Source: Eledone cirrhosa (lineage: Eukaryota). Taken from it: a stretch of 64,000 nucleotides of DNA. How positions within the stretch are numbered: the stretch's first letter is position 1; every line of letters starts with the position of its first letter. The translations under genes and the position numbers were made by a program. Location of the stretch: assembly GCA_964016885.1 (NCBI GenBank), contig OZ024744.1, positions 29,140,001 to 29,204,000 of the forward strand, written 5' to 3'. The notes beneath the pieces are model-generated. The model saw nothing but the letters and a program-made list of their open reading frames with translations, did no database searches and was not told the DNA's origin. This document shows positions 5,629 through 39,400 of this stretch, piece by piece.

Positions 5629-5662
5629 GTTGAAAAGGAGTGGAAAAGATGGGAAAGACCAC

Positions 5663-7656
5663 TTACCTTACTTCTCGTAGGGGAAGGACGGTTTTTCCAT
5701 CCTTTTCACTGCTTGTGGCCTCCTCAGGAAGGATGTCCTTATAAATCCTCCTGGAGAGTGCTTGTCGGAAGTCTCCGATGTCTTTGGGGAATTTTTGTTT
5801 TAGTGTCATGTACGTTTTCTGTGTGATGCGAGTGATTTGTATGTGTGGAGGTGGTGTGAATTTTGGGGTTGTTGTGTAGTCTTTTTCTGTGATGCTGGTG
5901 TTGTGTTGGATGTAGTGTAATAATTGCTTGTTGTTCAAATTTAATGCTGTGTAGTGTGTATCGTTTGGGTTGTTTTGTTTTGTTTGCGTTTGTTGTGGGT
6001 TTGTTTCTGTTTCGCATTTTGGTGACTTTTGTGGTGTAGGTGATGGTGGTGTTGGAGTTAATGATGGTGATGGTGTTGGTGTTTGGGTTGATGGGGTTGG
6101 TGATGCTGGTGTGGATGGTGGCATATCTGTCCTAACTTTTTTGTTTCTTAGTTTATTTGTTTCCCTCTATATTTTGTTTTTGGAGGAGGAAGGAAGAGAA
6201 TTTTTTCTTTTTTGGTTTCTTTTTTTTTTTCCGGATATCGTTTCCCACTCCTCGTCGTCACAATCTGTCTCCAGTTGTGATAGGCCGGGGAGTGGAAAAT
6301 CCTCCACAGCCGTTAGTTTTGGTTGTGGTGTGGTGGATGGTGTAGGCGCTGGTGCTAGTTCTGAAGCGTTGGGTGGTGGTGGTGTTGGTTTTGCTGGTGG
6401 TGGTAGTGGTGTTGGTTTTGCTACTGTTGCTGGGGTTGTTGCTGTTATAGTTGCTTCTGTTGTTGCTGCTACAGTTGTTGCTGCCATCTCTGCTACTGGT
6501 GGTGATGATGGTTGTGTCACTGGGGTGGGTAGGAGAGGTGGCCTCAACCTTTTAGCCTGAGGGCAGAAAGCCCTTAGGTGGGTTCCTTCACCACAAACGA
6601 CACACCTAGGTCTTCTGCCCTCGACAATTACCGTGAGGTGGCTGCCGTCAGTGAGGTCTATTACCTCTGGGATTTCCTCAATGCTTTTTTGGTCCGCTTG
6701 GATCAGGAGCTCCATCCCAGATCCGGACCAGTTTTCCTGCTTTTCTTTTGCTATTGTTATTATTTTCGTGTTGGCCTCGATGCCGGCGATGACCGCCGCT
6801 ATTAGCCAGGGAATTTCGATGGCCGGTGGAACGTGGGTCACCCTGATCTTTACGAGTCTCTGGCCACAATAGCTTGGGACGAGTGTGAAGTCGTCACTTT
6901 TTAATGGGGCCATGGAGTGTTCTCTAGCCTCCTCTGGTGTTTCAAAGAACACATCCACGGTTCCATACTTTTGCCCACGTTTGATGTGGGTTTTTCTTGC
7001 CCACACATGTCCCAAAGCTTTTTGGATTTGGGACTCGGATGCCCGTTCCACTCGGCGCGATTTTACATTTATTGTTCTATACGACACGGTGCATAGGCGC
7101 CGATGCTCCATTTTATTAGGTGGGGGGGTGAGGCTGACCCTGTACCCATCTTTCTTTACCATTTGTTTGGCATTTTCTAAATCCTCTTGAGTTACCGTGA
7201 ATGCTTCGAATTGTTTTGCCACTATGGCGAAACTGAGGGTCGGTTTTATAATGTCATTGTTGTTGTTGTTGCTATCGTTATTTGTGTTAATATGAATTTT
7301 AGTTTCAGTTGTGGTGGTGGTGACGTCAGTCGTCTTTGGTGCGGAAGAGTCCATTTTGCTTAATTTCATTTCGACATCACGAGTTAATTTATTTTTTTCT
7401 TCTTTTGTTTCTGTTGTCGCGGTGGTGGTGGGGGTGGTGGTTGTCGCATGGTGGTGGTGGTGGAGGCTTTAACACCTGCAGTCATTGGTAATGGCGGGAA
7501 ATGAATGTCTGCCTGAGACAAATTTAAAATATTGCTACTGCTTATATTTTTTTTTGTGTTGGCAAACGTAGTAACATTTACAATGGTGGTGTCGGTGTGA
7601 GGTGTTATTTTGTGAGGAAGGCTTTCAGCTGCTTCGTGCAGAGGGGAATTAGCCAT
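5663..7656 (-). pseudogene. T1 ORF1 (gag-like nucleic-acid-binding protein), broken into 7384-7656, 6167-7369 and 5663-6124
   Basis: CCHC knuckle CVVCGEGTHLRAFC, RRM-like region, Pro/Thr-rich and basic tracts. Ends PLREVR* just before ORF2. Confidence 0.75.
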
Positions 7657-8131
7657 TTTTTTTCAAAGAAATTTTTGGATAATAATAAAAGTTAAAATTT
7701 TGGGCACAAGGCCCCAATCTTTTTGGGTGTTCTTTTCGGAAAACAATGTATGTGTGCTTATAAACAGTTAACAATAAAATTTTCCATAAATGGCAATTTT
7801 TAACAAACGGAAATAACAAACCTTTGCGGAGCTCACGATGATACGATTTACTACGTAGGTCGCCAATAATAATAATAATAATGATTTCTTTATTAACCAC
7901 AAGGGTTTACATAAAGTAGACATTAAGGACAGTGCAGGACAATACAGGACGGTACAAATGGGCATTTCTACGTGTAAAAAACAAAAACAGAGGATGTAAC
8001 AAAAAATAACAATGAAAAATTCCCCAATGGGGGGAGACTTCGGAGGGACATTTGTGGAGAAAGCCCAGTAAAAGGCCACAATGACCCTGACCACCAAGGC
8101 AAGTGCCCTCTCCCAGTTTTCCACCTTTAAT

Positions 8132-11100: not shown

Positions 11101-11548
11101 CAGCGTGCATCTAAGATCCCGTTCCAGTCGCCCACTAACACTAAAGAGCAGGACGTTCCAAGAAAGGTCTCCAGACGCCGGAAGAAATCAGGCCGCCCTG
11201 CTCCTGTCGGGGCATAGACGGCCACTAGCCTGAAAGCTTGCCCGTCTCCGCTGGTCACGTCCAGCACCACCAGCTTACCCTCTGGGTCCAGGAAGATGGC
11301 CCGTATGGCGAGATCCAAACCTCTCCGAAAAAGCACAGCAACTCCTCCCCCCGACCCGGACGGCTGGGAGATGCGTACACATCGTAGCCACCGAAGATCG
11401 GTGCGAAGGCCCGTGCTTCAGAGATTCTGGTCTCGCTGATGGCCACTACATCTATGTTTAGTGACCTGAGGTCGTTGAGCAGGTGACCCTGCTTCCATGA
11501 CGACCCCAAGCCACGCGCATTTATGCTGCCTATTCTGAGTGAGGTCAT
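8132..11548 (-). pseudogene. T2 ORF2 APE-RT, fragmented
   Basis: ORFs 11255-11548, 10710-11336, 10146-10574, 9501-10139, 8751-9476 and 8132-8716 tile the T1 ORF2 protein. Confidence 0.9.
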
Positions 11549-11583
11549 GTTTAAAATAGAGTGGAAAAGATGGGAAAGACCAC

Positions 11584-13688
11584 TTACCGTACTTTTCGTA
11601 GAGGAGGGATGGTTTTTACATCCCTTTTCACTTGATCGTCTGGTGAAGGGACCGTTGAATCGTCCCTTCGGCTGGTCGTCGGCTCTTCTAAGAGAATGTC
11701 TGAATATACTCTTTGATTGATAGTTCCTCCTAGGTCCCTGAAATCACCAACTGCATTGGGGAATTTCGTTTTAATATTTGTGTATTGTTTCTGTGCGATT
11801 TTTTTAGCAGTCTTATGTTAGTTGGCGTTTTGATTGGTGCTGGTATTATGTAGTCGTGTTGTGAAATGTCTGTGTTCAATTATGTAAGTCATTAGTTTCT
11901 TGTGTGTATTTATTGCCGTGCATTTGTTTTTCTGGGGGTGGGGTGTGGTTCTGCTATTTTCTTGTCGTTGTTGCTGGGTGTGTGTGTTTTGTTGTTGTGT
12001 TTGCGATGTTGGTGCTTGTGGTGGTGGTGTTGAAGGTGTTGTTGGCGGTGGGGTTTTCGCCGGTGGTGATGGTGGTGCTAGTGTGGGTGGTGATGGTGTT
12101 GCTGGTGTTGCTGCTGTGAGTCTCTTTGCAGTAGACTTTACCCTTTTCTCATTTCTTTCCTCCCTTTTCAAAGGCGACGATGCGCTGCTTCTGCGTTTGT
12201 GCCTTCTTACGACCTTTTGCCATCCCTCTCCCATCTCACACTCCATGTCTGAATCTGTGAGGTCGGGGAGGGGTACCAGCTCCACTCTTTCACTTGTTGT
12301 TGTTGGTGATGTTTGCACTGGAGTCTCTGTTGCAACTGCATTTGGTATTGCTGTTGTTGTTAATATTTCCACTGCTGCTGCTGTTTTTGATTTCCGTGGC
12401 GTGGGTATGGGTGCCACGGACCTATCGTTCCTGGTTGCCGCTTGTCCTGTTGCTGGTAGCCGTGGCGCCGGTTTCGGAAAGAGGGGGGTTTTCTCCTTTC
12501 TCAGGGTCTTCTCGTTGCAGAAGGCCCTGAGGTGAGTCTTCGATCCACTGCGAAAGCATTTCGGGCGTTTGCCCTCAACACTTATGGGCAGTTGAGTGCC
12601 GTTATCGAAGTCTATCACATCCGGGATAGCTTCGATGCACTCCTGGTTGGTTTGGATTAACATCTCAATGGAGGAGCCGACCCAATCTTCTCTTACTTTT
12701 TTCTGTACTTGCAGTACAGTTGTTTTGTCCTCGATTCCGACGAGGACAGACGCGGCCAGCCAAGAAGGGGCCATCCCGGGGGGGGGGGGGGGGACGTGGG
12801 TCAGTTTGACCCTCACAATTTTTTGCCCGCAGTAGGAGGGCACCAACACCATTTCCTCGCTCCTTAGGGTCACTACGGATTGAGCCTTTGCCTCGTGGGG
12901 TGTGGCAAAAAGTACGTCTACGGTGGCATATTTTTTGCCTCGGGTGATGTGCGTTTTCCGCTGCCACACAGACCCCAAGGCTTTTTTATTTGAGCCTCTG
13001 TGGCTCTTTCAACCCTACGGGATTTTGTACCTACTGTACGGTACGTGACCGTACAGTGCTGTTGGGTTTCGAAAAAATTTTCCGCTGCCTTGCAGATTGC
13101 TCGGTGTCCAGTCTTTGTCACCATCTTCTTCGCTTCCTCTAATTCCTCATTTGTTATGAGGATTGTTTCCAGGTTCTTCGCGATACCTGCAAACGAGATT
13201 GGTTTTTCTTTGCTGCTGTTGTTGTTGTTGTCGTCAGAGCTGCTGGTACTTTTGTTGTTGCTGCAGGTACTACGACTACTGCTTCCGCCGCTGTTGCTGT
13301 GGTTGTTGTTGGTGTTGCTGCTGCTAATGCTGTTGTTGTTTATGCTGCTGGTGATGCTGTTGCGGCTGCTACTGTTGTTTTCATTGTCACTGTTGCTGTT
13401 GTTATTACGGCTGCTACTGCTATTATTCCTGACGTCAGACGAATGAAATGGGTTTTCGTATTTCCCGCACACCTGTTTCGTCGTTGTCGTCGTCGTCGTG
13501 GAGAAATCTTGCACGCTTTGCACGAGACTTTTCTTTTCTGTCGTCGCTTGCGAAAGAGAAGGGAGGGAGAGAGACACATTTAAAGAAGGGAGGGAGAGAG
13601 ACAATCTTCTCTCTGCTGTAGTGATGATTGAGGAAGAAGAAGACGGAATGAGTGGGAGTGACCTATGAAAATTCTTTTTCGTAGCCAT
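11584..13688 (-). pseudogene. T2 ORF1, divergent from T1 ORF1
   Basis: SFAGIAK..KSRRVERATEAQIKK and CFRSGSKTHLRAFC are homologous to T1 ORF1. Long Ser/Asn low-complexity N-terminus. Confidence 0.78.
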
Positions 13689-13903
13689 GTTGTTTTTTTG
13701 TTTAAAATAGATATTGGGCAGAAAACCCCAATAAGCAGTTATTTAACCCCGAAGGGCCAAATAACGGGCAGAAAGACCCCTCTCACGAGGAGGAGGGTGT
13801 TTTTGTCTACAAGTTCGTTAAAGTTTTAAACAATTTACAATTGTTATAGCGTTCAAAATTTACAATACCTTACAGAGCCGAGCCTCCGTCAACCATAGCA
13901 TTC

Positions 13904-16686: not shown

Positions 16687-17666
16687 GAGGACTGTGTTCA
16701 GATGGAGAAAAACAACCTATACAAATACGTGACCTATAGTAAGGAGCCAATGCTCAGAACTGTACTGAAGGAGGGGACAGTAGGCCAGGGGATGTCCAAG
16801 GAGGAAATAACATCAAGGAGAAAGAGCAGCCTTAAGGGAAAATCCCTTCATAGTACCTTCTTTGAGAAAACTGAATTTAGAGATCCACAGACATGGAACT
16901 GGTTGAGAAGAGGAGACCTCAAAAAGGCTACAGAAGGAATGCTAATGGCTGCGCAGGAGCAGGCCCTCAAAACGAAGTGGTTGAAGCACCATATCTACAA
17001 GGAGGAGGCTAGCCCACTGTGCAGGATCTGTGGAGAGAGAGAGGAGACTGTGGCTCACATTGTGTCCGAGTGTAAACACCTAGCCCAGACCCACTATAAG
17101 GGCTGGAGACACGATGTGATGGGCAGGGTGATCCACTGGCACCTGTGCAAAGTAAACAATTTACCACATTCTGAGAAATGGTATGAGTATAAGCCAGAGG
17201 CGGTGATGGAGAACGATCAGGTGAAGGTGCTGTGGGATTTTAGGATACAGACGGACAAAAAACTGGAACACAATAGACCTGACCTGGTGGTTGTGGACAA
17301 AGAAAAAAGATCGTGCCTGATTGTGGATGTGGCCTGCCCGTTCGACACGAGAGTGCAAGAGAAGGAGAGGGAGAAAATTAACCGATACCAGGACCTAAAG
17401 TGGGAGGTGAAAAGGATTTGGAACTGCCATGAAGTCAAAGTGATCCCGATTGTCATAGGCGCACTGGGGACTATCTCCAAAAGTTTCCAGGGATGGTTAA
17501 AGGAAATCGGCCCCTTCACGCTTTTTGGAACGCTTCAAAAGGCATGCTTGCTTGGAACAGCAAGAACCCTCCGATACGTCCTGAATATCTGAGGCTGCAG
17601 GTAGTGGCTTGATATTCAATCCAACGGACTTTCCAGTTAACCAACATCAATGCCTGAGATTCAAGG
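16686..17666 (+). mobile_element. Family B 5'-truncated copy B2; tail 17667-17753
   Basis: ORF 16702-17592 is the C-terminus of the family B protein. Confidence 0.92.
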
Positions 17667-17678
17667 AATAACAACAAC

Positions 17679-17749
<71 letters not shown>

Positions 17750-17754
<5 letters not shown>

Positions 17755-18307
17755 GGGAATTGCAGGAGGAGACACACTGATCTTGCCATGGGATGGATAG
17801 ACTACAGAAAGGCATTTGACATGGTGCCTCATTCTTGGATCACCAAAAGCCTGGAGATCTTCAAGGTGGCAGATAACATCAGGCAGTTGTTGGGCAGGAG
17901 TATGGGGTCCTGGGAGACAGAGTTGACATCAACTGGAGAATCCTTGGGAAGCGTGAAGATCAAGAGAGGTATCTTCCAGGGAGATAGCCTGTCCCCTCTG
18001 TTGTTTGTCCTTGCCCTGATGCCCCTGACCAGTGTACTGCGAAAAGTGAGAGCAGGATACAGGTTGGGAAAGGGAGGGCTTACCATCAATCACTTCCTCT
18101 TCATGGACGATCTTAAGCTCTTCGGGAAGAGTGAGGAGTTGGATGTGCTTGTTGACACTGTCCATATTTTCAGCAGTGATATATGTATGCAGTTTGGTAT
18201 TAGTAAGTGTGGAGTCATTGTGATGAGGAGGGGTAGGTTGAGCAGAAGTAACGGAATCCAGATACCAACAGGTGAGATGATAAAGGAAATTGACTCTGAG
18301 GAAGGAT
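17750..18307 (+). mobile_element. Family B internal RT fragment B3 (5' truncated, 3' deleted)
   Basis: MGNCRRRH...FMDD...EIDSEEG, then an abrupt switch. Confidence 0.9.
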
Positions 18308-18724
18308 TTTGTCGCTGTGGTGGTGGTGGCGGTGGCGGCTTTAACACCTGAAGTCATTGGTAATGGCGGGTAATGAATGTCTGCCTGAGACAAATTTAAA
18401 ATATTGCTACTACTTATATTTTTAGTCTTGGCAAACGTAGTAATATTTACAATGGTGGTGTCGGTGTGCGGTGTTAGTTTGTGAGGAAGGTGTGAATCTG
18501 AGTCGTTCATGGTTTTTCAAAGAAATATCTTTGTTTGATAATTATAAAAGTTTAAATTTTGGGTTCAAGGCCCCAATCTTTTTGAGTGTCTTTTTCAGAA
18601 AACAATGTATGTACACTTATATACAGTTATAAATAAAAAATTTCCGTAAATAGCAATTTTAAACAACTGAAAATAACAAACCTTTGCGGAGCTCACGATA
18701 ATACGATTTACTACGTAGGTCGCC
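18308..18724 (-). mobile_element. Orphan 5' end (5'UTR + ORF1 start) of a T1-type element
   Basis: Aligns with 7410-7864. Ends at the same GGCGACC terminus next to (AAT)n 18725-18798. Confidence 0.9.
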
Positions 18725-18734
18725 AATAATAATA

Positions 18735-18798
<64 letters not shown>

Positions 18799-18802
<4 letters not shown>

Positions 18803-19358
18803 AGAATTGGTGGGAGCATCAACCACCTCCCATACTTGAAAAAGATCACATCTCAATCTTGTGGAACTTTAGCATCCAAACAGACCGAAAAATAGATGCA
18901 AATAGACCTGATATAATATTGAAGGACTTTCAAAGGAGGGTATGCCTGCTAATTGATATGTCTGTTCCAATAGACAAGAATGTATCTATAAAAACATTTG
19001 AAAAATTGAGCAAGTATAAGGACCTGGAGATAGAAATTGGAAAAATGTGGAAATTGAGAACTAAAACAATACCAGTGGTTGTAGGCGCTCTGGGAATGAT
19101 ACCTAAGGGGTCTAACGACTACTTATCGCAAATCCCAGGAAACCCGCGTATAGGAGAAATACAAAAGATAGTACTAATGGGAACTGCCCATATACTAAGG
19201 AAGATCCTGTCAATATAAGTACATCACAAGTCTAAACACTAAGGATGCATGTGTGAATATGTGTGTTCTTTCTTGAACATGGCGGACCTTGTTGTCTCTT
19301 GAGGTCACTGGTTGTGACTTGGTGATAACTCGTATAAACATAAAGCAAGATAAATGCA
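18799..19358 (+). mobile_element. Family A 5'-truncated copy A2; tail 19359-19444
   Basis: ORF 18859-19218 is identical in protein to the A1 C-terminus; same 3'UTR. Confidence 0.92.
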
Positions 19359-19444
<86 letters not shown>

Positions 19445-22400
19445 GGGAAGAAGACGCACGAGGTGACGGAGGTCATGAAATCGCTCCCGTAAGTTTTGAA
19501 TTTTTAACATATTTAAACCATTTGTGAAATAACAACTCTTAGTACAAATGCTACGTAAAGCACCCGGCTTGAGCCCCAAAAAATTCGGACCCAAAATATA
19601 TTGTTATAAGGCTCAAATATTCAAATATTCAACTTTGTATTGTACACTGTATATCCAAAAAAGAAAATGGCTATAAATGGAAGAAGAACCCCCCCCCCCC
19701 CTCCTCCTCTGTATACACTATATAGAACAGCCAAACTCACCAACACCAGAAACTAGATACACCACCCACCCTATCACCTGTGTACACTAAACCACCACCG
19801 ATCACTACGGCCATCATTACAACCATTATCCCATCACCGCCGCCACCACCCCTTCACTCCTTCACTGCTGCCACCGCTACAGCACCATCGCTACAGTAAT
19901 ACGGTCACATCACCGCCACCACTGTCTCGGTATCGACATCACCACCACCACTGTCTCAGTATCGCTACCGCCGCCAGTCTCCCACTTCTTCTTTTAGCTG
20001 GCTGCTGCCACCACATTATAGAATCCCTACTGCTAAAAAAGAGGAAGGCATCAAAATATATAGATAGACTCAAAAGAAAAAAGAAAAAATAAACAACAAA
20101 AGCAGCACAGCAACAACAGTAAAAAACGAGAAAAACAGAGAAAAACAAAAACAAAAAAAGAAACCCCCAAAACGTAAAGAAAATAAGAATGAAGAGAGAG
20201 GCAGGCGGACGGACAGAGAAGAGGGGGGAAAAAGTAAAACTTAAAAAACAAAAACTAAGTCAGACATTCGAATACTACATTACAATGAAACTTATGCTTA
20301 TTCATTTTTGGGGCCCTTTCTGCCCGTGTGTTTGTTTGTTTATGTGTGTCCGTATACAGCGTGGTGATAATGCCACACAAGGGCCAAGTGGGATGGCGGA
20401 TCCACAGATGGCTATGTAAACATACATTCGCCAATCCTCGATAAGAGTGTTTAAATATCGAACATAAACAGTTCGAATAACGGTGAAATGGAGACTAGAA
20501 CGTCATGTGACAGACTCTCACCCAACAGGTGCCCCCTGGCTCAGCAGCAGGAACCTGACTGTCAACGAAATACTGCTGATGTTGGAGGAAGAAGAAGAAG
20601 GAAAGGGGCCAGAACCAACTGGACGAAAGAATTGAATAGAACTGTTATGCAATGCTACCTGAAAAGTAACCCCAAGGAGAGGGGCTACAGGAGACGGATG
20701 CATAACATCTGGAACGAGATTGGTTTATTTAAATTAGATGAACAAAAATTGGCCGGGCAGGCTCGGGTAATAAGAACTAATGGGTGGATAAGCGAGCTGG
20801 AACTGGAGGAACTGAGCAGAGAGAATGGCTTGGAGATGGCGGGTGTAGTATGCCAGACAAGCGAGCCGGCGGGAAATGAAGGTGAGGAGGTCCTGAGAGC
20901 GGAGGAACCACCCGAAGCAGACAATGATCTGAATACTGAGATAAATAATACCTGGAACAGAGATACGGCCACTGAGGAGATGAATGCTGACGGGCTAGGA
21001 CAAGATTCGGTTGACATCCTAAATTTAGTGGTAGATGAGTTGAACAATGATAGTGGGAGACCTATGAACCTAAGATTTGTAGACAGGAAAAAGTTAAAAG
21101 AAACAACAGCTAAGGTAAACAAAGTCATCCCATACCTTGAGGCGAGGAGTCTTCACCAGTGCAACAATATCCTCAAAGCAACAGCAAATACGGTGAGGAA
21201 ACTACTTGGTATAAAAGCGAGAGGAAACAACAGACAAGAAAGAGCAGAGCCGTGGTGGAAGAAGCGACTGAGTGGGCAAATCGGGGAAATGAGAAATGAC
21301 ATAGGAAAGCTTGAGTCACTACTGAATGGGACACTAAAAAACATAGGCACTAAAAATAGACTGGAAATAAAATACAAAACTAGGAGTAAAAAGCTAAATA
21401 TTATCATAGAGGAATTGAAGCAACGCATTGTAGCAAAGAGTGCCAAAATCAGGCGATACGAGAACAGAGTCAGTCAGTATAAACAGAACCGCATGTTCGA
21501 CAACAACCAGAAGATGCTGTTTGGACAGCTTGAGGGGAAAGAAAGAGGCACCGACTTGATCCCTGGGGCGGAACAAGCTAAAACATTCTGGAGAGGAATA
21601 TGGGAGCAGGATGTTAGACACAATGCCCAGGCAGGGTGGATTGAGACAGTACAGAGGGAGATCGGTGAGCAGGCACAGCAACAGACTGATTTGAGTATCA
21701 CAGTTGAAACTCTTAAGGGGCAAGCCAAAAAACTAACCAACTGGAAATCACCAGGCCCAGATGGTGTGCAGGGGTATTGGATTAAACATTTAACATCCCT
21801 CCACCCGAAGCTGACGGCCATGTTCAATGACTGCTTGGTGTCGGGTGAGGTGCCAGAGTGGTTGACAAAAGGTACCACAGTTCTGATAATGAAAGACCGA
21901 ATCAAGGGTAATGATGTTACCAACTATAGACCTATCACATGTCTGCCCGTAATGTGGAAACTGTTGACGAGCATTGTGTCTGAGGAAATCTACCATCACC
22001 TCCACACAAACAACTTGTTGCCGGACGAACAGAAAGGATGCCGAAAGAAGTCACGTGGTACAAAGGACCAGTTGCTTATTGATAAGATGGTAATGGGGAA
22101 TTGCAGGAGGAGACACACTGATCTTGCCATGGGATGGATAGACTACAGAAAGGCATTTGACATGGTGCCTCATTCCTGGATCACCAAAAGCCTGGAGATC
22201 TTCGGGGTGGCAGATAACATCAGAGAGTTGCTGGGCAGGAGTATGGGGTCCTGGGAGACAGAGTTGACATCAACTGGAGTATCCTTGGGAAGCGTGAAGA
22301 TCAAGAGAGGTATCTTCCAGGGAGATAGCCTGTCCCCTCTGTTGTTTGTCCTTGCCCTGATGCCCTTGACCATTATGCTGCGAAAAGTGAGAGCAGGATA

Positions 22401-23954
22401 CAAGTTGGGAAGGGGAGAGCTTACCATCAATCACCTCCTCTTCATGGACGATCTTAAGCTCTTCGGGAAAAGTGAGAAGGAGTTGGATGTGCTTGTTGAC
22501 ACTGTCCGTATTTTCAGCAGTGATATATGTATGCAGTTTGGTATTGGTAAATGTGGAGTCATTGTGATGAGGAGGGGTAGGTTGAGCAGAAGTAACGGGA
22601 TCCAGATACCAACAGGTGAGATGATAAAGGAAATTGACTCTGAGGAAGGATACAAGTATTTGGGCGTTCTGGAGGCTGATGGCATAAAGAACAAAAAAAT
22701 GAAGGAATTGTTAAGAACTGAATACATTCGGAGAGTAAGGAGCGTATTGAAGTCACATCTGAACAGCAGAAATGCCATAAGCGCAGTAAATTCCCGAGCT
22801 GTGTCTATTATTAGGTACAGTGCGGGAATTCTGAGATGGAATGTTGCTGAACAAAAAGAAATGGATAGGAAGACTAGGAAGCTATTGACTATCTACAACA
22901 TGTTCCACAAGAGGAGTGATGTCGATAGACTCTACCTAAGGAGATCTGAGGGTGGAAGAGGTCTTATCAGCATAGAGGACTGTGTTCAGATGGAGAAAAA
23001 CAACCTATACAAATACGTGACCTATAGTAAGGAGCCAATGCTCAGAGCTGTACTGAAGGAGGGGAGAGTAGGCCAGGGGATACCCAAGGAGGAAATAACA
23101 TCAAGGAGGAAGAGCAGCCTTAAGGGAAAATCCCTTCATAGTACCTTCTTTGAGAAAACTGAATTTAGAGATCCACAGACATGGAACTGGTTGAGAAGAG
23201 GAGACCTCAAAAAGGCTACAGAAGGAATGCTAATGGCTGCGCAGGAGCAGGCCCTCAAAACGAAGTGGTTGAAGCACCATATCTACAAGGAGGAGGCTAG
23301 CCCACTGTGCAGGATCTGTGGAGAGAGAGAGGAGACTGTGGCTCACATTGTGTCCGAGTGTAAACACCTAGCCCAGACCCACTATAAGGGCTGGAGACAC
23401 GATGTGATGGGCAGGGTGATCCACTGGCACCTGTGCAAAGTAAACAATCTACCACATTCTGAGAAATGGTATGAGCATAGGCCAGAGGCGGTGATGGAGA
23501 ACAGTCAGGTGAAGGTGCTGTGGGATTTTAGGATACAGACGGACAAAAAACTGGAACACAATAGACCTGACCTGGTGGTTGTGGACAAAGAAAAAAGATC
23601 GTGCCTGATTGTGGATGTGGCCTGCCCGTTCGACACGAGAGTGCAAGAGAAGGAGAGGGAGAAAATTAACCGATACCAGGACCTAAAGTGGGAGGTGAAA
23701 AGGATTTGGAACTGCCATGAAGTCAAAGTGATCCCGATTGTCATAGGCGCACTGGGGACTATCTCCAAAGGTTTCCAGGGATGGTTAAAGAAAATCGGCC
23801 CCTTCACGCTTTTTGGAACGCTTCAAAAGGCATGCTTGCTTGGAACGGCAAGAACCCTCCGATACGTCCTGAATATCTGAGGCTGCAGGTAGTGGCTTGA
23901 TATTCAATCCAACGGACTTTCCAGTTAACCAACATCAATGACTGAGATTCAAGG
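19445..23954 (+). mobile_element. Full-length R4/Dong-like family B element B4; tail 23955-24007
   Basis: About 1.04-kb leader (also in B7 and B9), single long ORF, short 3'UTR, (AAT)n on both sides. Confidence 0.95.
20488..23880 (+). CDS. Intact 1130-aa RLE retrotransposon protein: N-terminal Myb-like domain, RT (FMDD), CCHC knuckle, PD-(D/E)xK endonuclease
   Basis: Uninterrupted ORF. Motifs [75 protein letters not shown]. Confidence 0.93.
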   Translation: METRTSCDRLSPNRCPLAQQQEPDCQRNTADVGGRRRRKGARTNWTKELNRTVMQCYLKSNPKERGYRRRMHNIWNEIGLFKLDEQKLAGQARVIRTNGWISELELEELSRENGLEMAGVVCQTSEPAGNEGEEVLRAEEPPEADNDLNTEINNTWNRDTATEEMNADGLGQDSVDILNLVVDELNNDSGRPMNLRFVDRKKLKETTAKVNKVIPYLEARSLHQCNNILKATANTVRKLLGIKARGNNRQERAEPWWKKRLSGQIGEMRNDIGKLESLLNGTLKNIGTKNRLEIKYKTRSKKLNIIIEELKQRIVAKSAKIRRYENRVSQYKQNRMFDNNQKMLFGQLEGKERGTDLIPGAEQAKTFWRGIWEQDVRHNAQAGWIETVQREIGEQAQQQTDLSITVETLKGQAKKLTNWKSPGPDGVQGYWIKHLTSLHPKLTAMFNDCLVSGEVPEWLTKGTTVLIMKDRIKGNDVTNYRPITCLPVMWKLLTSIVSEEIYHHLHTNNLLPDEQKGCRKKSRGTKDQLLIDKMVMGNCRRRHTDLAMGWIDYRKAFDMVPHSWITKSLEIFGVADNIRELLGRSMGSWETELTSTGVSLGSVKIKRGIFQGDSLSPLLFVLALMPLTIMLRKVRAGYKLGRGELTINHLLFMDDLKLFGKSEKELDVLVDTVRIFSSDICMQFGIGKCGVIVMRRGRLSRSNGIQIPTGEMIKEIDSEEGYKYLGVLEADGIKNKKMKELLRTEYIRRVRSVLKSHLNSRNAISAVNSRAVSIIRYSAGILRWNVAEQKEMDRKTRKLLTIYNMFHKRSDVDRLYLRRSEGGRGLISIEDCVQMEKNNLYKYVTYSKEPMLRAVLKEGRVGQGIPKEEITSRRKSSLKGKSLHSTFFEKTEFRDPQTWNWLRRGDLKKATEGMLMAAQEQALKTKWLKHHIYKEEASPLCRICGEREETVAHIVSECKHLAQTHYKGWRHDVMGRVIHWHLCKVNNLPHSEKWYEHRPEAVMENSQVKVLWDFRIQTDKKLEHNRPDLVVVDKEKRSCLIVDVACPFDTRVQEKEREKINRYQDLKWEVKRIWNCHEVKVIPIVIGALGTISKGFQGWLKKIGPFTLFGTLQKACLLGTARTLRYVLNI

Positions 23955-23966
23955 AATAACAATAAC

Positions 23967-24005
<39 letters not shown>

Positions 24006-24009
<4 letters not shown>

Positions 24010-27004
24010 GAGATATGGCCACTGAGGAGATGAATGCTGACGGGCTAGGACAAGATTCGGTTGACATCCTAAATTTAGTGGTAGATGAATTGAACAATGA
24101 TAGTGGGAGACCTATGAACCTAAGATTTGTAGACAGGAAAAAGTTAAAAGAAACAACAGCTAAGGTAAACAAAGTCATCCCATACCTTGAGGCGAGGAGC
24201 CTTCACCAGTGCAACAATATCCTCAAAGCAACAGCAAATACGGTGAGGAAACTACTTGGTATAAAAGCGAGAGGAAACAACAGACAAGAAAGAGCAGAGC
24301 CGTGGTGGAAGAAGCGACTGAGTGGGCAAATCGGGGAAATGAGAAATGACATAGGAAAGCTTGAGTCACTACTGAATGGGACACTAAAAAACATAGGCAC
24401 TAAAAATAGACTGGAAATAAAATACAAAACAAGGAAGAAAAAGCTAAATATTATCATAGAGGAACTGAAGCAACGCATTGTAGCAAAGAGTGCAAAAATC
24501 AGGCGATACGAGAACAGAGTCAGTCAGTATAAACAGAACCGCATGTTCGACAACAACCAGAAGATGCTGTTTGGACAGCTTGAGGGGAAAGAAAGAGGCA
24601 ACGACTTGATCCCTGGGGCGGAGCAAACTAAAACATTCTGGAGAGGAATATGGGAGCAGGATGTTAGACACAATGCTCAGGCAGGGTGGATTGAGACAGT
24701 ACAGAGGGAGATCGGTGAGCAGGCACAACAACAAACTGATTTGAGTATGACAGTTGAAACTCTTAAGGGGCAGGCCAAAAAACTAACCAACTGGAAATCA
24801 CCAGGCCCAGATGGTGTGCAGGGGTATTGGATTAAACATTTAACATCCCTCCACCCGAAGCTGACGGCCATGTTCAATGACTGCTTGGTGTCGGGTGAGG
24901 TGCTAGAGTGGTTGACAAAAGATACCACAGTTCTGATAATGAAAGACCGAATCAAGGGTAATGATGTTACCAACTATAGACCTATCACATGTCTGTCCGT
25001 AATGTGGAAACTGTTGACGAGCATTGTGTCTGAGGAAATCTACCATCACCTCCACACAAACAACTTGTTACCGGACGAACAGAAAGGATGCCGAAAGAAG
25101 TCACGTGGTACAAAGGACCAGTTACTTATTGATAAGATGGTAATGGGGAATTGCAGGAGGAGACACACTGATCTTGCCATGGGATGGATAGACTACAGAA
25201 AGGCATTTGACATGGTGCCTCATTCCTGGATCACCAAAAGCCTGGAGATCTTCAGGGTGGCAGATAACATCAGACAGTTGCTAGGCAGGAGTATGGGGTC
25301 CTGGGAGACAGAGTTGACATCAACTGGAGTATCCTTGGGAAACGTGAAGATCAAGAGAGGTATCTTCCAGGGAGATAGCCTGTCCCCTCTGTTGTTTGTC
25401 CTTGCCCTGATGCCCTTGACCATTATGCTGCGAAAAGCGAGAGCAGGATACAAGTTGGGAAGGGGAGAGCTTACCATCAATCACCTCCTCTTCTTGGACG
25501 ATCTTAAGCTCTTCGGGAAAAGTGAGAAGGAGTTGGATGTGCTTGTTGACACTGTCCGTATTTTCAGCAGTGATATATGTATGCAGTTTGGTATTGGTAA
25601 ATGTGGAGTCATTGTGATGAAGAGGGGTAGGTTGGGCAGAAGTAACGGGATCCAGATACCAACAGGTGAGATGATAAAGGAAATTGACTCTGAGGAAGGA
25701 TACAAGTATTTGGGCGTTCTGGAGGCTGATGGCATAAAGAACAAAAAAATGAAGGAATTGTTAAGAACTGAATACATTCGGAGAGTAAGGAGCGTATTGA
25801 AGTCACATCTGAACAGCAGAAATGCCATAAGCGCAGTAAATTCCCGACCTGTGTCTATTATTAGGTACAGTGCGGGAATTCTGAGATGGAATGTTGCTGA
25901 ACAAAAAGAAATGGATAGGAAGACTAGGAAGCTATTGACTATCTACAACATGTTCCACAAGAGGAGTGATGTCGATAGACTCTACCTAAGGAGATCTGAG
26001 GGTGGAAGAGGTCTTATCAGCATAGAGGACTGTGTTCAGATGGAGAAAAACAACCTATACAAATACGTGACCTATAGTAAGGAGCCAATGCTCAGAACTG
26101 TACTGAAGGAGGGGACAGTAGGCCAGGGGATGTCCAAGGAGGAAATAACATCAAGGAGGAAGAGCAGCCTTAAGGGAAAATCCCTTCATAGTACCTTCTT
26201 TGAGAAAACTGAATTTAGAGATCCACAGACATGGAACTGGTTGAGAAGAGGAGACCTCAAAAAGGCTACAGAAGGAATGCTAATGGCTGCGCAGGAGCAG
26301 GCCCTCAAAACGAAGTGGTTGAAGCACCATATCTACAAGGAGGAGGCTAGCCCACTGTGCAGGATCTGTGGAGAGAGAGAGGAGACTGTGGCTCACATTG
26401 TGTCCGAGTGTAAACACCTAGCCCAGACCCACTATAAAGGCTGGAGACACGATGTGATGGGCAGGGTGATCCACTGGCACCTGTGCAAAGTAAACAATTT
26501 ACCACATTCTGAGAAATGGTATGAGCATAGGCCAGAGGCGGTGATGGAGAACAATCAGGTGAAGGTGCTGTGGGATTTTAGGATACAGACGGACAAAAAA
26601 CTGGAACACAATAGACCTGACCTGGTGGTTGTGGACAAAGAAAAAAGATCGTGTCTGATTGTGGATGTGGCCTTCCCGTTCGACACGAGAGTGCAAGAGA
26701 AGGAGAGGGAGAAAATTAACCGATACCAGGACCTAAAGTGGGAGGTGAAAAGGATTTGGAACTGCCATGAAGTCAAAGTGATCCCGATTGTCATAGGCGC
26801 ACTGGGGACTATCTCCAAAAGTTTCCAGGGATGGTTAAAGGAAATCGGCCCCTTCACGCTTTTTGGAACGCTTCAAAAGGCATGCTTGCTTGGAACAGCA
26901 AGAACCCTCCGATACGTCCTGAATATCTGAGGCTGCAGGTAGTGGCTTGATATTCAATCCAACGGACTTTCCAGTTAACCAACATCAATGCCTGAGATTC
27001 AAGG
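24006..27004 (+). mobile_element. Family B 5'-truncated copy B5 with open 971-aa ORF (24015-26930); tail 27005-27091
   Basis: Starts inside the ORF right after the B4 tail. Confidence 0.93.
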
Positions 27005-27016
27005 AATAACAACAAC

Positions 27017-27087
<71 letters not shown>

Positions 27088-27092
<5 letters not shown>

Positions 27093-27645
27093 GGGAATTG
27101 CAGGAGGAGACACACTGATCTTGCCATGGGATGGATAGACTACAGAAAGGCATTTGACATGGTGCCTCATTCTTGGATCACCAAAAGCCTGGAGATCTTC
27201 AAGGTGGCAGATAACATCAGGCAGTTGTTGGGCAGGAGTATGGGGTCCTGGGAGACAGAGTTGACATCAACTGGAGAATCCTTGGGAAGCGTGAAGATCA
27301 AGAGAGGTATCTTCCAGGGAGATAGCCTGTCCCCTCTGTTGTTTGTCCTTGCCCTGATGCCCCTGACCAGTGTACTGCGAAAAGTGAGAGCAGGATACAG
27401 GTTGGGAAAGGGAGGGCTTACCATCAATCACTTCCTCTTCATGGACGATCTTAAGCTCTTCGGGAAGAGTGAGGAGTTGGATGTGCTTGTTGACACTGTC
27501 CATATTTTCAGCAGTGATATATGTATGCAGTTTGGTATTAGTAAGTGTGGAGTCATTGTGATGAGGAGGGGTAGGTTGAGCAGAAGTAACGGAATCCAGA
27601 TACCAACAGGTGAGATGATAAAGGAAATTGACTCTGAGGAAGGAT
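27088..27645 (+). mobile_element. Family B RT fragment B6 (duplicate of B3)
   Basis: Same as 17750-18307. Confidence 0.9.
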
Positions 27646-28062
27646 TTTGTCGCTGTGGTGGTGGTGGCGGTGGCGGCTTTAACACCTGAAGTCATTGGTA
27701 ATGGCGGGTAATGAATGTCTGCCTGAGACAAATTTAAAATATTGCTACTACTTATATTTTTAGTCTTGGCAAACGTAGTAATATTTACAATGGTGGTGTC
27801 GGTGTGCGGTGTTAGTTTGTGAGGAAGGTGTGAATCTGAGTCGTTCATGGTTTTTCAAAGAAATATCTTTGTTTGATAATTATAAAAGTTTAAATTTTGG
27901 GTTCAAGGCCCCAATCTTTTTGAGTGTCTTTTTCAGAAAACAATGTATGTACACTTATATACAGTTATAAATAAAAAATTTCCGTAAATAGCAATTTTAA
28001 ACAACTGAAAATAACAAACCTTTGCGGAGCTCACGATAATACGATTTACTACGTAGGTCGCC
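27646..28062 (-). mobile_element. Orphan T1-type 5' end (duplicate)
   Basis: Same as 18308-18724. Confidence 0.9.
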
Positions 28063-28072
28063 AATAATAATA

Positions 28073-28139
<67 letters not shown>

Positions 28140-28143
<4 letters not shown>

Positions 28144-28699
28144 AGAATTGGTGGGAGCATCAACCACCTCCCATACTTGAAAAAGATCACATCTCAATCT
28201 TGTGGAACTTTAGCATCCAAACAGACCGAAAAATAGATGCAAATAGACCTGATATAATATTGAAGGACTTTCAAAGGAGGGTATGCCTGCTAATTGATAT
28301 GTCTGTTCCAATAGACAAGAATGTATCTATAAAAACATTTGAAAAATTGAGCAAGTATAAGGACCTGGAGATAGAAATTGGAAAAATGTGGAAATTGAGA
28401 ACTAAAACAATACCAGTGGTTGTAGGCGCTCTGGGAATGATACCTAAGGGGTCTAACGACTACTTATCGCAAATCCCAGGAAACCCGCGTATAGGAGAAA
28501 TACAAAAGATAGTACTAATGGGAACTGCCCATATACTAAGGAAGATCCTGTCAATATAAGTACATCACAAGTCTAAACACTAAGGATGCATGTGTGAATA
28601 TGTGTGTTCTTTCTTGAACATGGCGGACCTTGTTGTCTCTTGAGGTCACTGGTTGTGACTTGGTGATAACTCGTATAAACATAAAGCAAGATAAATGCA
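28140..28699 (+). mobile_element. Family A truncated copy A3 (duplicate of A2); tail to 28785
   Basis: ORF 28200-28559. Confidence 0.92.
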
Positions 28700-28785
<86 letters not shown>

Positions 28786-31700
28786 GGGAAGAAGACGCAC
28801 GAGGTGACGGAGGTCATGAAATCGCTCCCGTAAGTTTTGAATTTTTAACATATTTAAACCATTTGTGAAATAACAACTCTTAGTACAAATGCTACGTAAA
28901 GCACCCGGCTTGAGCCCCAAAAAATTCGGACCCAAAATATATTGTTATAAGGCTCAAATATTCAAATATTCAACTTTGTATTGTACACTGTATATCCAAA
29001 AAAGAAAATGGCTATAAATGGAAGAAGAACCCCCCCCCCCCTCCTCCTCTGTATACACTATATAGAACAGCCAAACTCACCAACACCAGAAACTAGATAC
29101 ACCACCCACCCTATCACCTGTGTACACTAAACCACCACCGATCACTACGGCCATCATTACAACCATTATCCCATCACCGCCGCCACCACCCCTTCACTCC
29201 TTCACTGCTGCCACCGCTACAGCACCATCGCTACAGTAATACGGTCACATCACCGCCACCACTGTCTCGGTATCGACATCACCACCACCACTGTCTCAGT
29301 ATCGCTACCGCCGCCAGTCTCCCACTTCTTCTTTTAGCTGGCTGCTGCCACCACATTATAGAATCCCTACTGCTAAAAAAGAGGAAGGCATCAAAATATA
29401 TAGATAGACTCAAAAGAAAAAAGAAAAAATAAACAACAAAAGCAGCACAGCAACAACAGTAAAAAACGAGAAAAACAGAGAAAAACAAAAACAAAAAAAG
29501 AAACCCCCAAAACGTAAAGAAAATAAGAATGAAGAGAGAGGCAGGCGGACGGACAGAGAAGAGGGGGGAAAAAGTAAAACTTAAAAAACAAAAACTAAGT
29601 CAGACATTCGAATACTACATTACAATGAAACTTATGCTTATTCATTTTTGGGGCCCTTTCTGCCCGTGTGTTTGTTTGTTTATGTGTGTCCGTATACAGC
29701 GTGGTGATAATGCCACACAAGGGCCAAGTGGGATGGCGGATCCACAGATGGCTATGTAAACATACATTCGCCAATCCTCGATAAGAGTGTTTAAATATCG
29801 AACATAAACAGTTCGAATAACGGTGAAATGGAGACTAGAACGTCATGTGACAGACTCTCACCCAACAGGTGCCCCCTGGCTCAGCAGCAGGAACCTGACT
29901 GTCAACGAAATACTGCTGATGTTGGAGGAAGAAGAAGAAGGAAAGGGGCCAGAACCAACTGGACGAAAGAATTGAATAGAACTGTTATGCAATGCTACCT
30001 GAAAAGTAACCCCAAGGAGAGGGGCTACAGGAGACGGATGCATAACATCTGGAACGAGATTGGTTTATTTAAATTAGATGAACAAAAATTGGCCGGGCAG
30101 GCTCGGGTAATAAGAACTAATGGGTGGATAAGCGAGCTGGAACTGGAGGAACTGAGCAGAGAGAATGGCTTGGAGATGGCGGGTGTAGTATGCCAGACAA
30201 GCGAGCCGGCGGGAAATGAAGGTGAGGAGGTCCTGAGAGCGGAGGAACCACCCGAAGCAGACAATGATCTGAATACTGAGATAAATAATACCTGGAACAG
30301 AGATACGGCCACTGAGGAGATGAATGCTGACGGGCTAGGACAAGATTCGGTTGACATCCTAAATTTAGTGGTAGATGAGTTGAACAATGATAGTGGGAGA
30401 CCTATGAACCTAAGATTTGTAGACAGGAAAAAGTTAAAAGAAACAACAGCTAAGGTAAACAAAGTCATCCCATACCTTGAGGCGAGGAGTCTTCACCAGT
30501 GCAACAATATCCTCAAAGCAACAGCAAATACGGTGAGGAAACTACTTGGTATAAAAGCGAGAGGAAACAACAGACAAGAAAGAGCAGAGCCGTGGTGGAA
30601 GAAGCGACTGAGTGGGCAAATCGGGGAAATGAGAAATGACATAGGAAAGCTTGAGTCACTACTGAATGGGACACTAAAAAACATAGGCACTAAAAATAGA
30701 CTGGAAATAAAATACAAAACTAGGAGTAAAAAGCTAAATATTATCATAGAGGAATTGAAGCAACGCATTGTAGCAAAGAGTGCCAAAATCAGGCGATACG
30801 AGAACAGAGTCAGTCAGTATAAACAGAACCGCATGTTCGACAACAACCAGAAGATGCTGTTTGGACAGCTTGAGGGGAAAGAAAGAGGCACCGACTTGAT
30901 CCCTGGGGCGGAACAAGCTAAAACATTCTGGAGAGGAATATGGGAGCAGGATGTTAGACACAATGCCCAGGCAGGGTGGATTGAGACAGTACAGAGGGAG
31001 ATCGGTGAGCAGGCACAGCAACAGACTGATTTGAGTATCACAGTTGAAACTCTTAAGGGGCAAGCCAAAAAACTAACCAACTGGAAATCACCAGGCCCAG
31101 ATGGTGTGCAGGGGTATTGGATTAAACATTTAACATCCCTCCACCCGAAGCTGACGGCCATGTTCAATGACTGCTTGGTGTCGGGTGAGGTGCCAGAGTG
31201 GTTGACAAAAGGTACCACAGTTCTGATAATGAAAGACCGAATCAAGGGTAATGATGTTACCAACTATAGACCTATCACATGTCTGCCCGTAATGTGGAAA
31301 CTGTTGACGAGCATTGTGTCTGAGGAAATCTACCATCACCTCCACACAAACAACTTGTTGCCGGACGAACAGAAAGGATGCCGAAAGAAGTCACGTGGTA
31401 CAAAGGACCAGTTGCTTATTGATAAGATGGTAATGGGGAATTGCAGGAGGAGACACACTGATCTTGCCATGGGATGGATAGACTACAGAAAGGCATTTGA
31501 CATGGTGCCTCATTCCTGGATCACCAAAAGCCTGGAGATCTTCGGGGTGGCAGATAACATCAGAGAGTTGCTGGGCAGGAGTATGGGGTCCTGGGAGACA
31601 GAGTTGACATCAACTGGAGTATCCTTGGGAAGCGTGAAGATCAAGAGAGGTATCTTCCAGGGAGATAGCCTGTCCCCTCTGTTGTTTGTCCTTGCCCTGA

Positions 31701-33294: not shown

Positions 33295-33306
33295 AATAAC
33301 AATAAC

Positions 33307-33345
<39 letters not shown>

Positions 33346-33349
<4 letters not shown>

Positions 33350-36445: not shown

Positions 36446-39400
36446 GGGAAGAAGACACACGAGGTGGTAGAAGGTCATGAAATCACTCCCGTAAGTTTTG
36501 AATTTTTAACATATTTAAATCATTTGTGAAATAACAACTCTTAGTACAAATGCTACGTAAAGCATCCGGCTTGAGCCCCAAAAAAATTCTGACCCAAAAT
36601 ATATTGTTATAAGGCTCAAATATTCAAATATTCAACTTTGTATTGTACATTGTATATTCAAAAAAGAAAATGGCTATAAATGGAAGAAGAAGAACCCCCC
36701 CCTCCTCTGTCTACACTATATAGAATAGCCAAACAACACCAATCTCACCAACACCAGAAACTAGATACACCACCTACCCCATCACCTCTCTGTGTACACT
36801 AAACACAGCAGCCAGATAACGGCCACTGCCATCATTACTACCAGTATCCCATCACCGCCGCCACCACTCCTTCATTGCTACCACCGCTACAACACCATCA
36901 CTACAGTAATACGATCACATCACCACCACCACTGCCTCAGTATCGACATCACCACCACCACTGTCTCAGTATCGCTACCGCCGCTATTCTCTCCCATTGC
37001 TTCCTGCTAGTTGCTGCCACCACATTATAGAATTCCAACTAAAAAAAAGGAAGGCATCAAAATATGTAGATAGACTCAAAAGGAAAAACAAACATTAAAA
37101 CCAAAGCGGCACAGCAACAACAACAAAAAAAAAGGGAAAAACAAACAGAGAAAAACAAAAACAAAAAAAAACGTAAAGAACATAAGAATGAAGAGAGAAA
37201 CAAGCGGACGGACAGAGAAGAGAGGGGATAAACTAAGTCAGACATTCGAACACTACATTACAATGAAACTTATGCTTATTCATTTTGGGGTTTTTTTCTG
37301 CCTGTTTGTTTGTTTGTTTATTTGTGTTCGCCTACAGCGTGGTGATAATGCCACACAAGAGCCAAGTGGAGCGGCGCAACCACCGGAGACGGTGAATCCA
37401 CAGATGATTATGTAACCATACATTCGCCAATCCTGTATAAGAGTGTTTAAATATCGAACCTAAACAGTTCGAATAACGGTGAAATGGAGATTAGAACGTC
37501 ATGTGACAGACTCTCACCCAACAGGTGCTCCCTGGCTCAGCAGCAGGAACCTGGCTGTCAACCAAATACTGCTGGTGTCGGAGGAAGAAGAAGAAGGAAA
37601 GGGACCAGAACCAACTGGACGAAAGAATTGAATAGAACTGTTATGCAATGTTACCTGAAAAGTAACCCCAAGGAGAGGGGCTATAGGAGACGAATGCATA
37701 ACATCTGGAACGAGATTGGTCTATTTAAATTAGATGAACAAAAATTGGCCGGCAGGCTCGGGTAATAAGAACTAATGGGTGGATAAGCGAGCTGGAACTG
37801 GAGGAACTGAGCAGAGAGATTAGCTTGGAGATGGAGGGTGGAGTATGCCAGGTAAACGAGCCAGTGGGAAATAAAGGTGAGGAGGTCGAGAGAACGGAGG
37901 AACCACCCGAAGCAGACAATGATCTGAATGCTGAGATAAATAATACCTGGAACAGAGATACGGCCACTGAGGAGATGAATGCTGACGGGCTAGGACATGA
38001 TTCGGTTGACATCCTAAATTTAGTGGTAGATGAATTGAACAATGATAGTGGGAGACCTATGAACCTAAGATTTGTAGACAGGAAAAAGTTAAAAAAACAA
38101 CAGCTAAGGTAAACAAAGTCATCCCATACCTTGAGGTGAGGAGCCTTCACCAGTGCAACAATATCCTCAAAGCGACAGCAAATACGGTGAGGAAACTACT
38201 TGGTATAAAAGCGAGAGGAAACAACAGACAAGAAAGAGCAGAGCCTTGGTGGAAGAAACGACTGAGTGGTAAAATCAGGGAAATGAGAAATGACATTGGA
38301 AAGCTTGAGTCACTACTGAATGGGACACTAAAAGACATAGGCACTAAAAATAGACTGGAAATAAAGTACAAAACTAGGAGGAAAAAGCTAAATATTATCA
38401 TAGAGGAACCGAAGCAACGCATTGTAGCAAAGAGTGCAAAAATCAGGCGATACGAGAACAGAGTCAGTCAGTATAAACAGAACCGCATGTTCGACAACAA
38501 CCAGAAGATGCTGTTTGGACAGCTTGAAGGGAAAGAAAGAGGCAACGACTTGATCCTTGAGGCGGAACAAACTAAAACATTCTGGAGAGAAATATGGGAG
38601 CAGGATGTTAGACATAATGACCAGGCAGGGTGGATTGAGACAATACAGAGGGAGATCGGTGAGCAGGCACACCAACAAACTGATTTGAGTATCACAGTTG
38701 AAACTCTTAAGGGGCAGGCCAAAAAGCTAACCAACTGGAAATCACCAAGCCCAGATGGTGTGCAGGGGTATTGGATTAAAAATATAACATCCCTCCACCC
38801 GAAACTGACAACCATGTTCAATGACTGCTTGATATCAGGTGAGGTACCAGAGTGGTTGAAAAAAGGTACCACAGTTCTGATAATGAAAGACCGAATCAAG
38901 GGTAATGATGTTACCAACTATAGACCTATCACATGTCTGTCCGTAATGTGGAATCTGTTGATGAGCATTGTGTCTGAGGAAATCTACCATCACCTCCACA
39001 CAAACAACTTGTTACCGGACGAACAGAAAGGATGCCGAAAGAAGTCACGTGGTACAAAGGACCAGTTACTTATTGATAAGATGGTAATGGGGAATTGCAG
39101 GAGGAGACACACTGATCTTGCCATGGGATGGATAGACTACAGAAAGGCATTTGACATGGTGCCTCATTCTTGGATCACCAAAAGCCTGGAGATCTTCAAG
39201 GTGGCAGATAACATCAGACAGTTGTTGGGCAAGAGTATGAGGTCCTGGGAAACAGAGTTGACTTCAACTGGAGAATCCTTGGGAAGCGTGAAGATCAAAA
39301 GAGGTATCTTCCAGGGAGATAGCCTGTCCCCTCTGTTGTTTGTCCTTGCCATGATGCCCCTGACCAGTGTACTGCGAAAAGTGAGAGCAGGAAACGGGTT

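Follow-up and report, generated by a model that had tools for sequence, protein, structure and literature searches.

The 5' end of an RLE element in the window (the whole 64,000-nt stretch of DNA analysed here) was very probably captured from a LINE of the Tx1 type. The ORF of this element, copy B4, is preceded by a 1,043-nt leader (19445-20487) containing several ATGs, and sequence comparison supports a Tx1 derivation for only its first ~305-365 nt. The sequence-only reading of this DNA had proposed that family B, represented by B4, acquired its promoter module from a co-resident Tx1-like LINE. The view that the RLE lineage captured a Tx1-type 5' module from another clade was upheld, on the strength of a donor-like family and a chain of intermediates. 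The donor is of the Tx1 type as proposed, but the closest donor-like family is an old, broken one (family H) and not T1 or T2. The proposed extent had to be narrowed as well, because the middle of the leader is a lineage-specific spacer and the last ~130 nt belong to the ancestral Dong UTR. We consider with fair confidence that, as the best joint explanation, a Tx1-type 5' end was inherited and is likely to serve as an internal RNA polymerase II promoter.

In the window, LINEs are nested within (AAT)n runs. The plus-strand copies contain one ORF of 1130 aa with RT, a CCHC knuckle and a PD-(D/E)xK motif, and the element is classed as a Dong/R4-like RLE element, a label resting on anatomy and target. 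Two features of the R4/Dong group were found, namely insertion in (TAA)n (30/30 fetched copies) and a single ORF with RT, CCHC and a C-terminal PD-(D/E)xK nuclease. The minus-strand elements T1 and T2 have an ORF1 and an APE-RT ORF2. In T1, Pfam matched Exo_endo_phos and RVT_1, and ORF1 followed by an APE-RT ORF2 is the order of the Tx1 clade. An ATT run was present 5' of 19 of 20 T1 copies, a sequence-specific target as in that clade. The ORF2 starts of T1 and T2 are nearly identical, and their ORF1s and leaders differ (window 5500-5690 and 11420-11610, minus strand). Part of the window, about 17590-36270, is a tandem duplication of ~9.34 kb that includes full RLE copies at 19445 and 28786; these are 99.9% identical and, lying in the duplication, are not independent. 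The features of the element and of the related leaders are shown in Table 1.

Table 1. Coordinates of the RLE element, its leader and the related leaders in the window, as assigned by sequence comparison.
Feature	Position	Strand	Evidence or remark
(AAT)n target run 5' of the RLE element	19359..19444	+	AAT-type run precedes 30/30 fetched copies
Tx1-derived head, homologous to the family H 5' UTR	19445..19676	+	Donor-only profile match 19481-19697, 50.3 bits, E 3e-15 (window); alignment
Best-retained block, splice-donor-like GTAAGT at 19489-19494	19480..19524	+	63-71% identity to five H copies, about the same as old RLE copies
Decayed Tx1 hairpin remnant 5' of the ATG, with 8-nt duplication	19595..19639	+	68% identity to H; local fold 0 kcal/mol vs -11.5 to -17.5 in H copies
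ATG of ATGGCTA, arisen within the RLE lineage	19667..19669	+	Older copies: TTTTTAC, then ATGTTTAC, ATGGTTAT, ATGGCTAT
Tx1 ORF1 start relic, ATG at 19677	19677..19810	+	Frame broken by C run 19689-19701; end point approximate
ACC-rich and A-rich spacer specific to this RLE lineage, with short remnants of older spacer	19811..20359	+	
3' part of the ancestral Dong-type UTR (~130 nt)	20360..20487	+	Aligns with older subfamilies and relatives from other species
Intact single ORF, 1130 aa: RT, CCHC knuckle, PD-(D/E)xK nuclease	20488..23880	+	Pfam RVT_1 E 7.5e-23; motifs from translation; 0 internal stops
3' UTR and (AAT)n tail	23881..24007	+	
Leader on the independent, diverged insertion B9	36446..37487	+	
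T1 leader, relative of the donor-like family, not nearest	7650..7864	-	32.6 bits with donor-only profile; same clade as H in tree
T2 leader, distant member of the same leader type	13682..13903	-	0 matches with donor-only profile

The leader is a fixed part of the RLE family, as the sequence-only reading had held. When its first 246 nt were used as a query against the 3.0-Gb genome, 1579 candidates were obtained, and the 40 that were scored were all 100% identical. All 30 fetched copies, one of them the window copy, ran from an AAT-type run through the leader into the ORF, colinear at 99.5-100%, and began at the identical base after the run across many contigs. The recurrence of the leader on B9 (36446) was confirmed at 83% over 1.1 kb. 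Moreover, B-type heads preceded by ATT runs were matched 11 times at 6 places, and each match led on into the RLE element. The chimera of captured head and RLE body has been amplified as a unit. The earlier statement that no long ORF follows the ATGs of B4 also agreed with these copies: the C run after the ATGs was 9-21 long and put 14, 9 and 7 of the 30 copies in the three frames, and no conserved short ORF was found after the leader ATGs among them. For the older subfamily B' (209 exact motif matches), 30 loci were fetched, some of them overlapping, and at least 22 carry this head, at 75-86% identity. Its leader has a unit of ~440 nt repeated up to three or more times (L064, L070, L080, L081). 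Extra depth in the middle of the leader, seen in contigs of three runs, was considered as another family and proved to be this tandem unit.

The similarity to Tx1 leaders was then weighed against chance. Pairwise comparison of B4 with T1 and T2 gave p = 0.03-0.26 under strict local scoring (500 dinucleotide shuffles) and z = 3.1-5.6 with lenient gaps. The similarity claimed for these leaders was therefore weak with T1 and T2 alone, but it went far beyond chance when more families were used. The ORF1 zinc knuckle pattern had 7754 matches (reversed control 0), and from knuckle matches and other loci a set of 14 Tx1 leaders in 7 groups, with 207-234 nt to the ATG, was collected. In many of them a donor-like GTAAG lies around +28 to +62; a stable fold 5' of the ATG is present in 10 of the 14 (z -3.3 to -6.9). 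A broad profile was built from the 14 leaders with 0 RLE rows and scored over 705 kb of fetched DNA. The B leaders ranked right after the Tx1 leaders, and the best unrelated match reached 7.0 bits. The best B' leader scored 14.3 bits (E 0.008) and B4 8.2 bits (E 0.58), a value at which the window copy alone is not significant genome-wide with this profile.

In a local-shuffle test, the donor site and ATG context were held fixed and the rest was shuffled in 15- or 30-nt windows. Four B leaders reached z 4.4-7.4, and for each of them 0 of 300 shuffles attained the score. Held-out Tx1 groups scored 5.5-49.5 bits in the same test, the B leaders 27-37, and the sister RLE family C -0.9. The held-out Tx1 group T8 failed to beat its shuffles, which indicates that the profile misses some true Tx1 leaders. 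An upstream slice of family C at 15.1 bits was rejected, since its score came from an adjacent T1 leader read on the reverse strand, and the clean C leader gave the negative score above. Furthermore, a donor-only profile was made from five H copies, four with ORF1 matches and L298 with no ORF1 match. B9 scored 54.0 bits with it, and the scores of B4, T1 and T2 are given in Table 1. The five copies came from an RLE-linked query, which favours similarity to the RLE heads and cannot create it.

Family H was reached from L280, an old RLE copy that scored 49.1 bits and has an intact hairpin. With its head as the query, 95 candidates were obtained, of which 40 were scored, at 69-83% identity. The search for ORF1/APE-RT elements headed by such a leader, suggested in the earlier reading, was productive: the H head precedes a Tx1-type ORF1 in 4 of 30 fetched loci (L301, L305, L308, L318), with ORF1 and APE in L305 and ORF1 and RT in L301, and ATT-like runs precede L305, L308 and L318. 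In 8 of the 30 loci the H head leads into Dong spacer or body (L293, L294, L295, L300, L302, L309, L319, L322), and in one, L315, into the ORF of family C. Every H copy seen was old and broken. Most joins are interrupted for this reason, and it was not possible to assign 17 of the 30 loci. In L315 (about 1460-1800), the start of the family C ORF (94.7% to C) directly follows an older B-type head, with an ACC/AAC tract at the join. Judged from this join, L315 is a head swap between two RLE families, of which one copy was seen.

The alignment runs unbroken from H through L280, L309/L283, L315, B' and B9 to B4. Identity to the Tx1 copies of H declines from 64-79% in L280 to 54-60% in B4. The hairpin energy was -17.5, -16.4 and -11.5 kcal/mol in H and -9.0, -6.6, -2.2, -0.6 and 0 along the RLE chain. 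Positions 81-150 fall from 77-78% to 53-54% identity to H along the series, and positions 36-80 have 60-71% in B4 and B' vs 62-78% in older copies. Positions 1-35, where the start site would lie, align poorly throughout the series (35% identity between H and the first 35 nt of the leader). These values are modest evidence that the GTAAGT block is the part of the head under constraint. This block (19480..19524) is a candidate promoter or U1 element. The decay series, in which the block near +45 was kept and the hairpin and ORF1 were dropped, points to a short candidate promoter element. The capture itself is old and lies four or more subfamilies back.

This chain also changed the reading of individual motifs. 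Those quoted in the sequence-only reading are present at the distances given: the 5' ends of B4, T1 and T2 lie at 19445, 7864 and 13903, and ATGGCTA at 19667, 7656 and 13688 (222, 208 and 215 nt). Two of them, the best two, are nevertheless late look-alikes and no sign of shared ancestry. TGACGGAGG occurs in the youngest subfamily only, older ones having TGGTAGAAGG, TGGATAGAAGG or TGGTGG(A/C)T, and the ATG of ATGGCTA arose inside the RLE lineage; the start of Tx1 ORF1 aligns with the ATG at 19677. A third anchor, the pairing of motifs between B4 and T1, likewise does not reflect shared ancestry, as B4 CCCAAAAT aligns to the left of the hairpin and T1 GCCCAAAAT aligns with B4 GCTCAAATAT. Downstream of the ATG at 19677, the ORF1 relic shows clear homology to ~19750, followed by an apparent internal repeat of the same piece. 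The spacer (19811..20359) had no match to T1 or T2 except low-complexity pieces. Beyond it, the former start codon is ATA at 20455-20457 in B4 and ATG in older subfamilies. The RLE start codon has moved, a new ATG having arisen 11 codons downstream of the 20455 site.

The sequence-only reading had named as part of a refutation the same leader in all related Dong elements with no Tx1 counterpart. By profile, the Tx1-type head is absent from the outgroups of the recipient, that is, from family C, the carriers of other heads (X and Y) and 28 relatives. Family C is a second RLE family in the same nests with 35% amino-acid identity and a GC-rich leader of ~170 nt. Relatives from metagenome contigs comprised 79 loci; the 28 matching within the first 45 residues scored ≤9.5 bits, two of them having no score, and many of these contigs are short and may lack the true 5' ends. 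Several relatives from other species carry the GC-rich leader of C, and older subfamilies in this genome keep its 3' end, to which the window copy aligns from 20360. By eye, three RLE relatives from other species (L192, L193, L226) have tRNA-like heads, and Rfam found none in L193 or L226. Older RLE subfamilies carry heads X (L183, L266) and Y (L282, L291), which are not Tx1-like by profile, as 25-128 of 200 shuffles reach their scores. On this same RLE lineage, head Y was also seen in L268 and L270, and its ATG lies ~235 nt from the start. The RLE body tree groups all H and B carriers together (support 91/90), apart from those X and Y carriers that were included. Since the tail of Y is still present in L319 and B', Y was most likely the head that H replaced.

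In the head tree, a clade with support 82/93 unites H, T1 and the RLE heads, the last of these split into two groups. Monophyly of the RLE heads was not rejected (p-AU 0.21), and the tree is unrooted and gives no direction. The direction from Tx1 to RLE is judged from the spread of the leader over deeply diverged Tx1 groups, with RLE only on a shallow branch, and from the position of the ATG upstream of ORF1 in Tx1. Transfer from the RLE lineage to Tx1 would be compatible with an unrooted tree, but it is extremely improbable: the leader spans at least 7 Tx1 groups whose ORF1 cores are down to 27-55% identical to that of T1, the RLE branch is far shallower (~72-93% nucleotide identity), only Tx1 has the ATG upstream of an ORF1, and the RLE outgroups are without the head. 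Equally hard to sustain is the idea that there was no descent at all and that the leaders converged on a general host promoter layout with a GC-rich start, a splice donor, a T-rich stretch and an AAAATGG context. The weak pairwise similarity of B4 to T1 and T2 and the two look-alike motifs would fit such convergence. The signal, however, remains when the donor site and ATG context are held fixed, the collinear 64-79% identity to H runs on ~135 nt into ORF1, and the hairpin arms persist as sequence after pairing is lost. Family H has already largely refuted this reading. As to the route of the capture, L302 loses its homology to H at an AAC/AAT tract ~135 nt beyond the ATG, and L319 and the B line lose theirs at an AAT tract ~95 nt beyond it; in B4 the join itself is deleted. 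The two different end points mean two captures, or one followed by deletions. As these tracts look like the Dong target, insertion of a truncated Dong into H ORF1 in sense orientation is the favoured route. By this route, a 5'-truncated Dong copy would have inserted in sense at an AAC/AAT tract ~95-135 nt inside H ORF1, the H promoter would have yielded a transcript ending in the Dong 3' tail, and the Dong protein would have copied the chimeric transcript whole. The parts for ORF1 translation would then have decayed, with the block from +36 to +80 retained. A rather unlikely other route, which gives the same capture and function and overlaps the best explanation, is a template switch of the Dong reverse transcriptase onto H RNA. 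Strand switching is among the routes proposed for L1 mosaics in the available part of that account (PMC3600994), and the two families normally lie in opposite orientation in these arrays. Young sense joins of T1 or T2 to Dong numbered 0 among the fetched loci (3 antisense rows, all from one duplicated event). A template switch, however, fits less well with both join types lying at AAC/AAT tracts like the Dong target, and with the B-type head of L315 joined at such a tract to the ORF of family C.

L1-like elements carry an internal promoter. Given the capture, the captured head quite probably acts as a promoter: its first base is fixed across contigs and it was retained through several subfamilies, which fits an internal promoter. 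It is unlikely, though conceivable, that the head is a passenger or has another job, such as RNA stability or U1 binding against early polyadenylation, with transcription by read-through or driven by the spacer. The retained block is centred on a splice-donor-like hexamer, and the 5' ribozyme of insect Dong and R4, in the part of the report available, fits co-transcription (PMC3774820). On the other hand, the first base is identical in the 30 copies, each following an AAT-type run, as expected of a defined start, and the head persisted over four or more subfamilies despite rearrangement of the spacer. An HDV-like fold was found in 0 of 13 leaders with our own descriptor, used without a positive control, and Rfam gave no relevant match; neither this element nor the outgroup leaders yielded a ribozyme. 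That the leader is an intron removed before translation, with its donor at 19489 and its acceptor at 20359, is less likely still. GTAAGT lies at +45 and a T-rich tract ends in TACAG at 20359, as an intron would have. The join of 19489 to 20359, however, occurred in 0 genomic copies; 7 places lack the T of GT, none of them a canonical splice (the search covered joins without T as the second base), and the AG is missing in the older L283 copy. With an internal promoter as the preferred function, a broader account can be offered tentatively. The RLE lineage may have abandoned the read-through strategy typical of its clade and gained a Pol II promoter with the head of a Tx1-type competitor in the same microsatellite. 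Heads would have been swapped serially (first GC-rich, X or Y next, and finally H, perhaps on two occasions from one donor), and the lineage may have outlived this donor as a highly amplified family. If true, nests in shared microsatellites would be places where promoters cross the deepest divide within LINEs.

A CR1 piece in BovB is a possible parallel. The nearest known systems, as far as the accessible parts of the cited papers describe them, agree with the present case in some respects and differ in others. The mouse L1 lineage had 11 replacements of the 5' UTR (PMC3600994), and as in mammalian L1, the coding part of a LINE lineage is retained here while its 5' end is exchanged, and fossils of earlier heads remain. 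The L1 exchanges, however, are described among L1 families, whereas here an RLE element took the head and a dead ORF1 piece of an APE-type two-ORF element. The transfer of ORF1 between CR1 and L2 is also a cross-clade gain of a 5' module, with the same route proposed, a 5'-truncated element inserted into another (PMC4120745). There, whole ORF1s moved within the Jockey group and the direction was not determinable; here ORF1 was cut and decayed, the endonuclease classes differ, and donor-like copies, intermediates and joins are visible. Dong of Bombyx mori and R4 share the (TAA)n context and the single ORF with RT and a restriction-like nuclease, but start with a self-cleaving HDV-like ribozyme in place of a Tx1-derived head and a 1,043-nt leader (PMC3774820). 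The microsatellite-targeting Tx1 elements Kibi and Koshi resemble the donor side, whose APE elements likewise occupy microsatellites, (ATT)n and (TATC)n in this genome; the target units differ, and the comparison is by description (PMC4494074). Dong-R4 and L1-Tx1 are given as recently active in Octopus vulgaris in the available part of that report (PMC13282606), and curated octopus repeat libraries such as this one may already contain these families. Our literature search, with subscription journals and Repbase outside its scope, returned no RLE element described as having a 5' end derived from Tx1.

This case bears on the sources of LINE promoters and on the mode of transcription of most RLE elements. 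A young, intact recipient occurs in one genome together with donor-like copies, intermediates and join sites, and the sister family C, which retained the old leader, provides a built-in comparison. The candidate promoter element near +45 is common to many Tx1-type families here. In addition, repeat libraries can mislabel such 5' ends. Module swapping looks common among the Tx1 families when their leaders and ORFs are compared.

Several further observations were made. A group of Tx1-type families in (TATC)n gave 1248 candidates (L112-L131, L134, L153), and L161 has a T5-type leader with a T7-like knuckle. A 416-nt 5' piece of T1 is fused to an antisense RLE RT fragment at 17754-18738 of the window and in its duplicate. 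A common short repeat of this genome presumably resembles an octopus SINE. An ORF for a PIF1-like helicase lies on the minus strand of the window at 53569-55278 (E 6e-61) and is possibly a piece of a Helitron.
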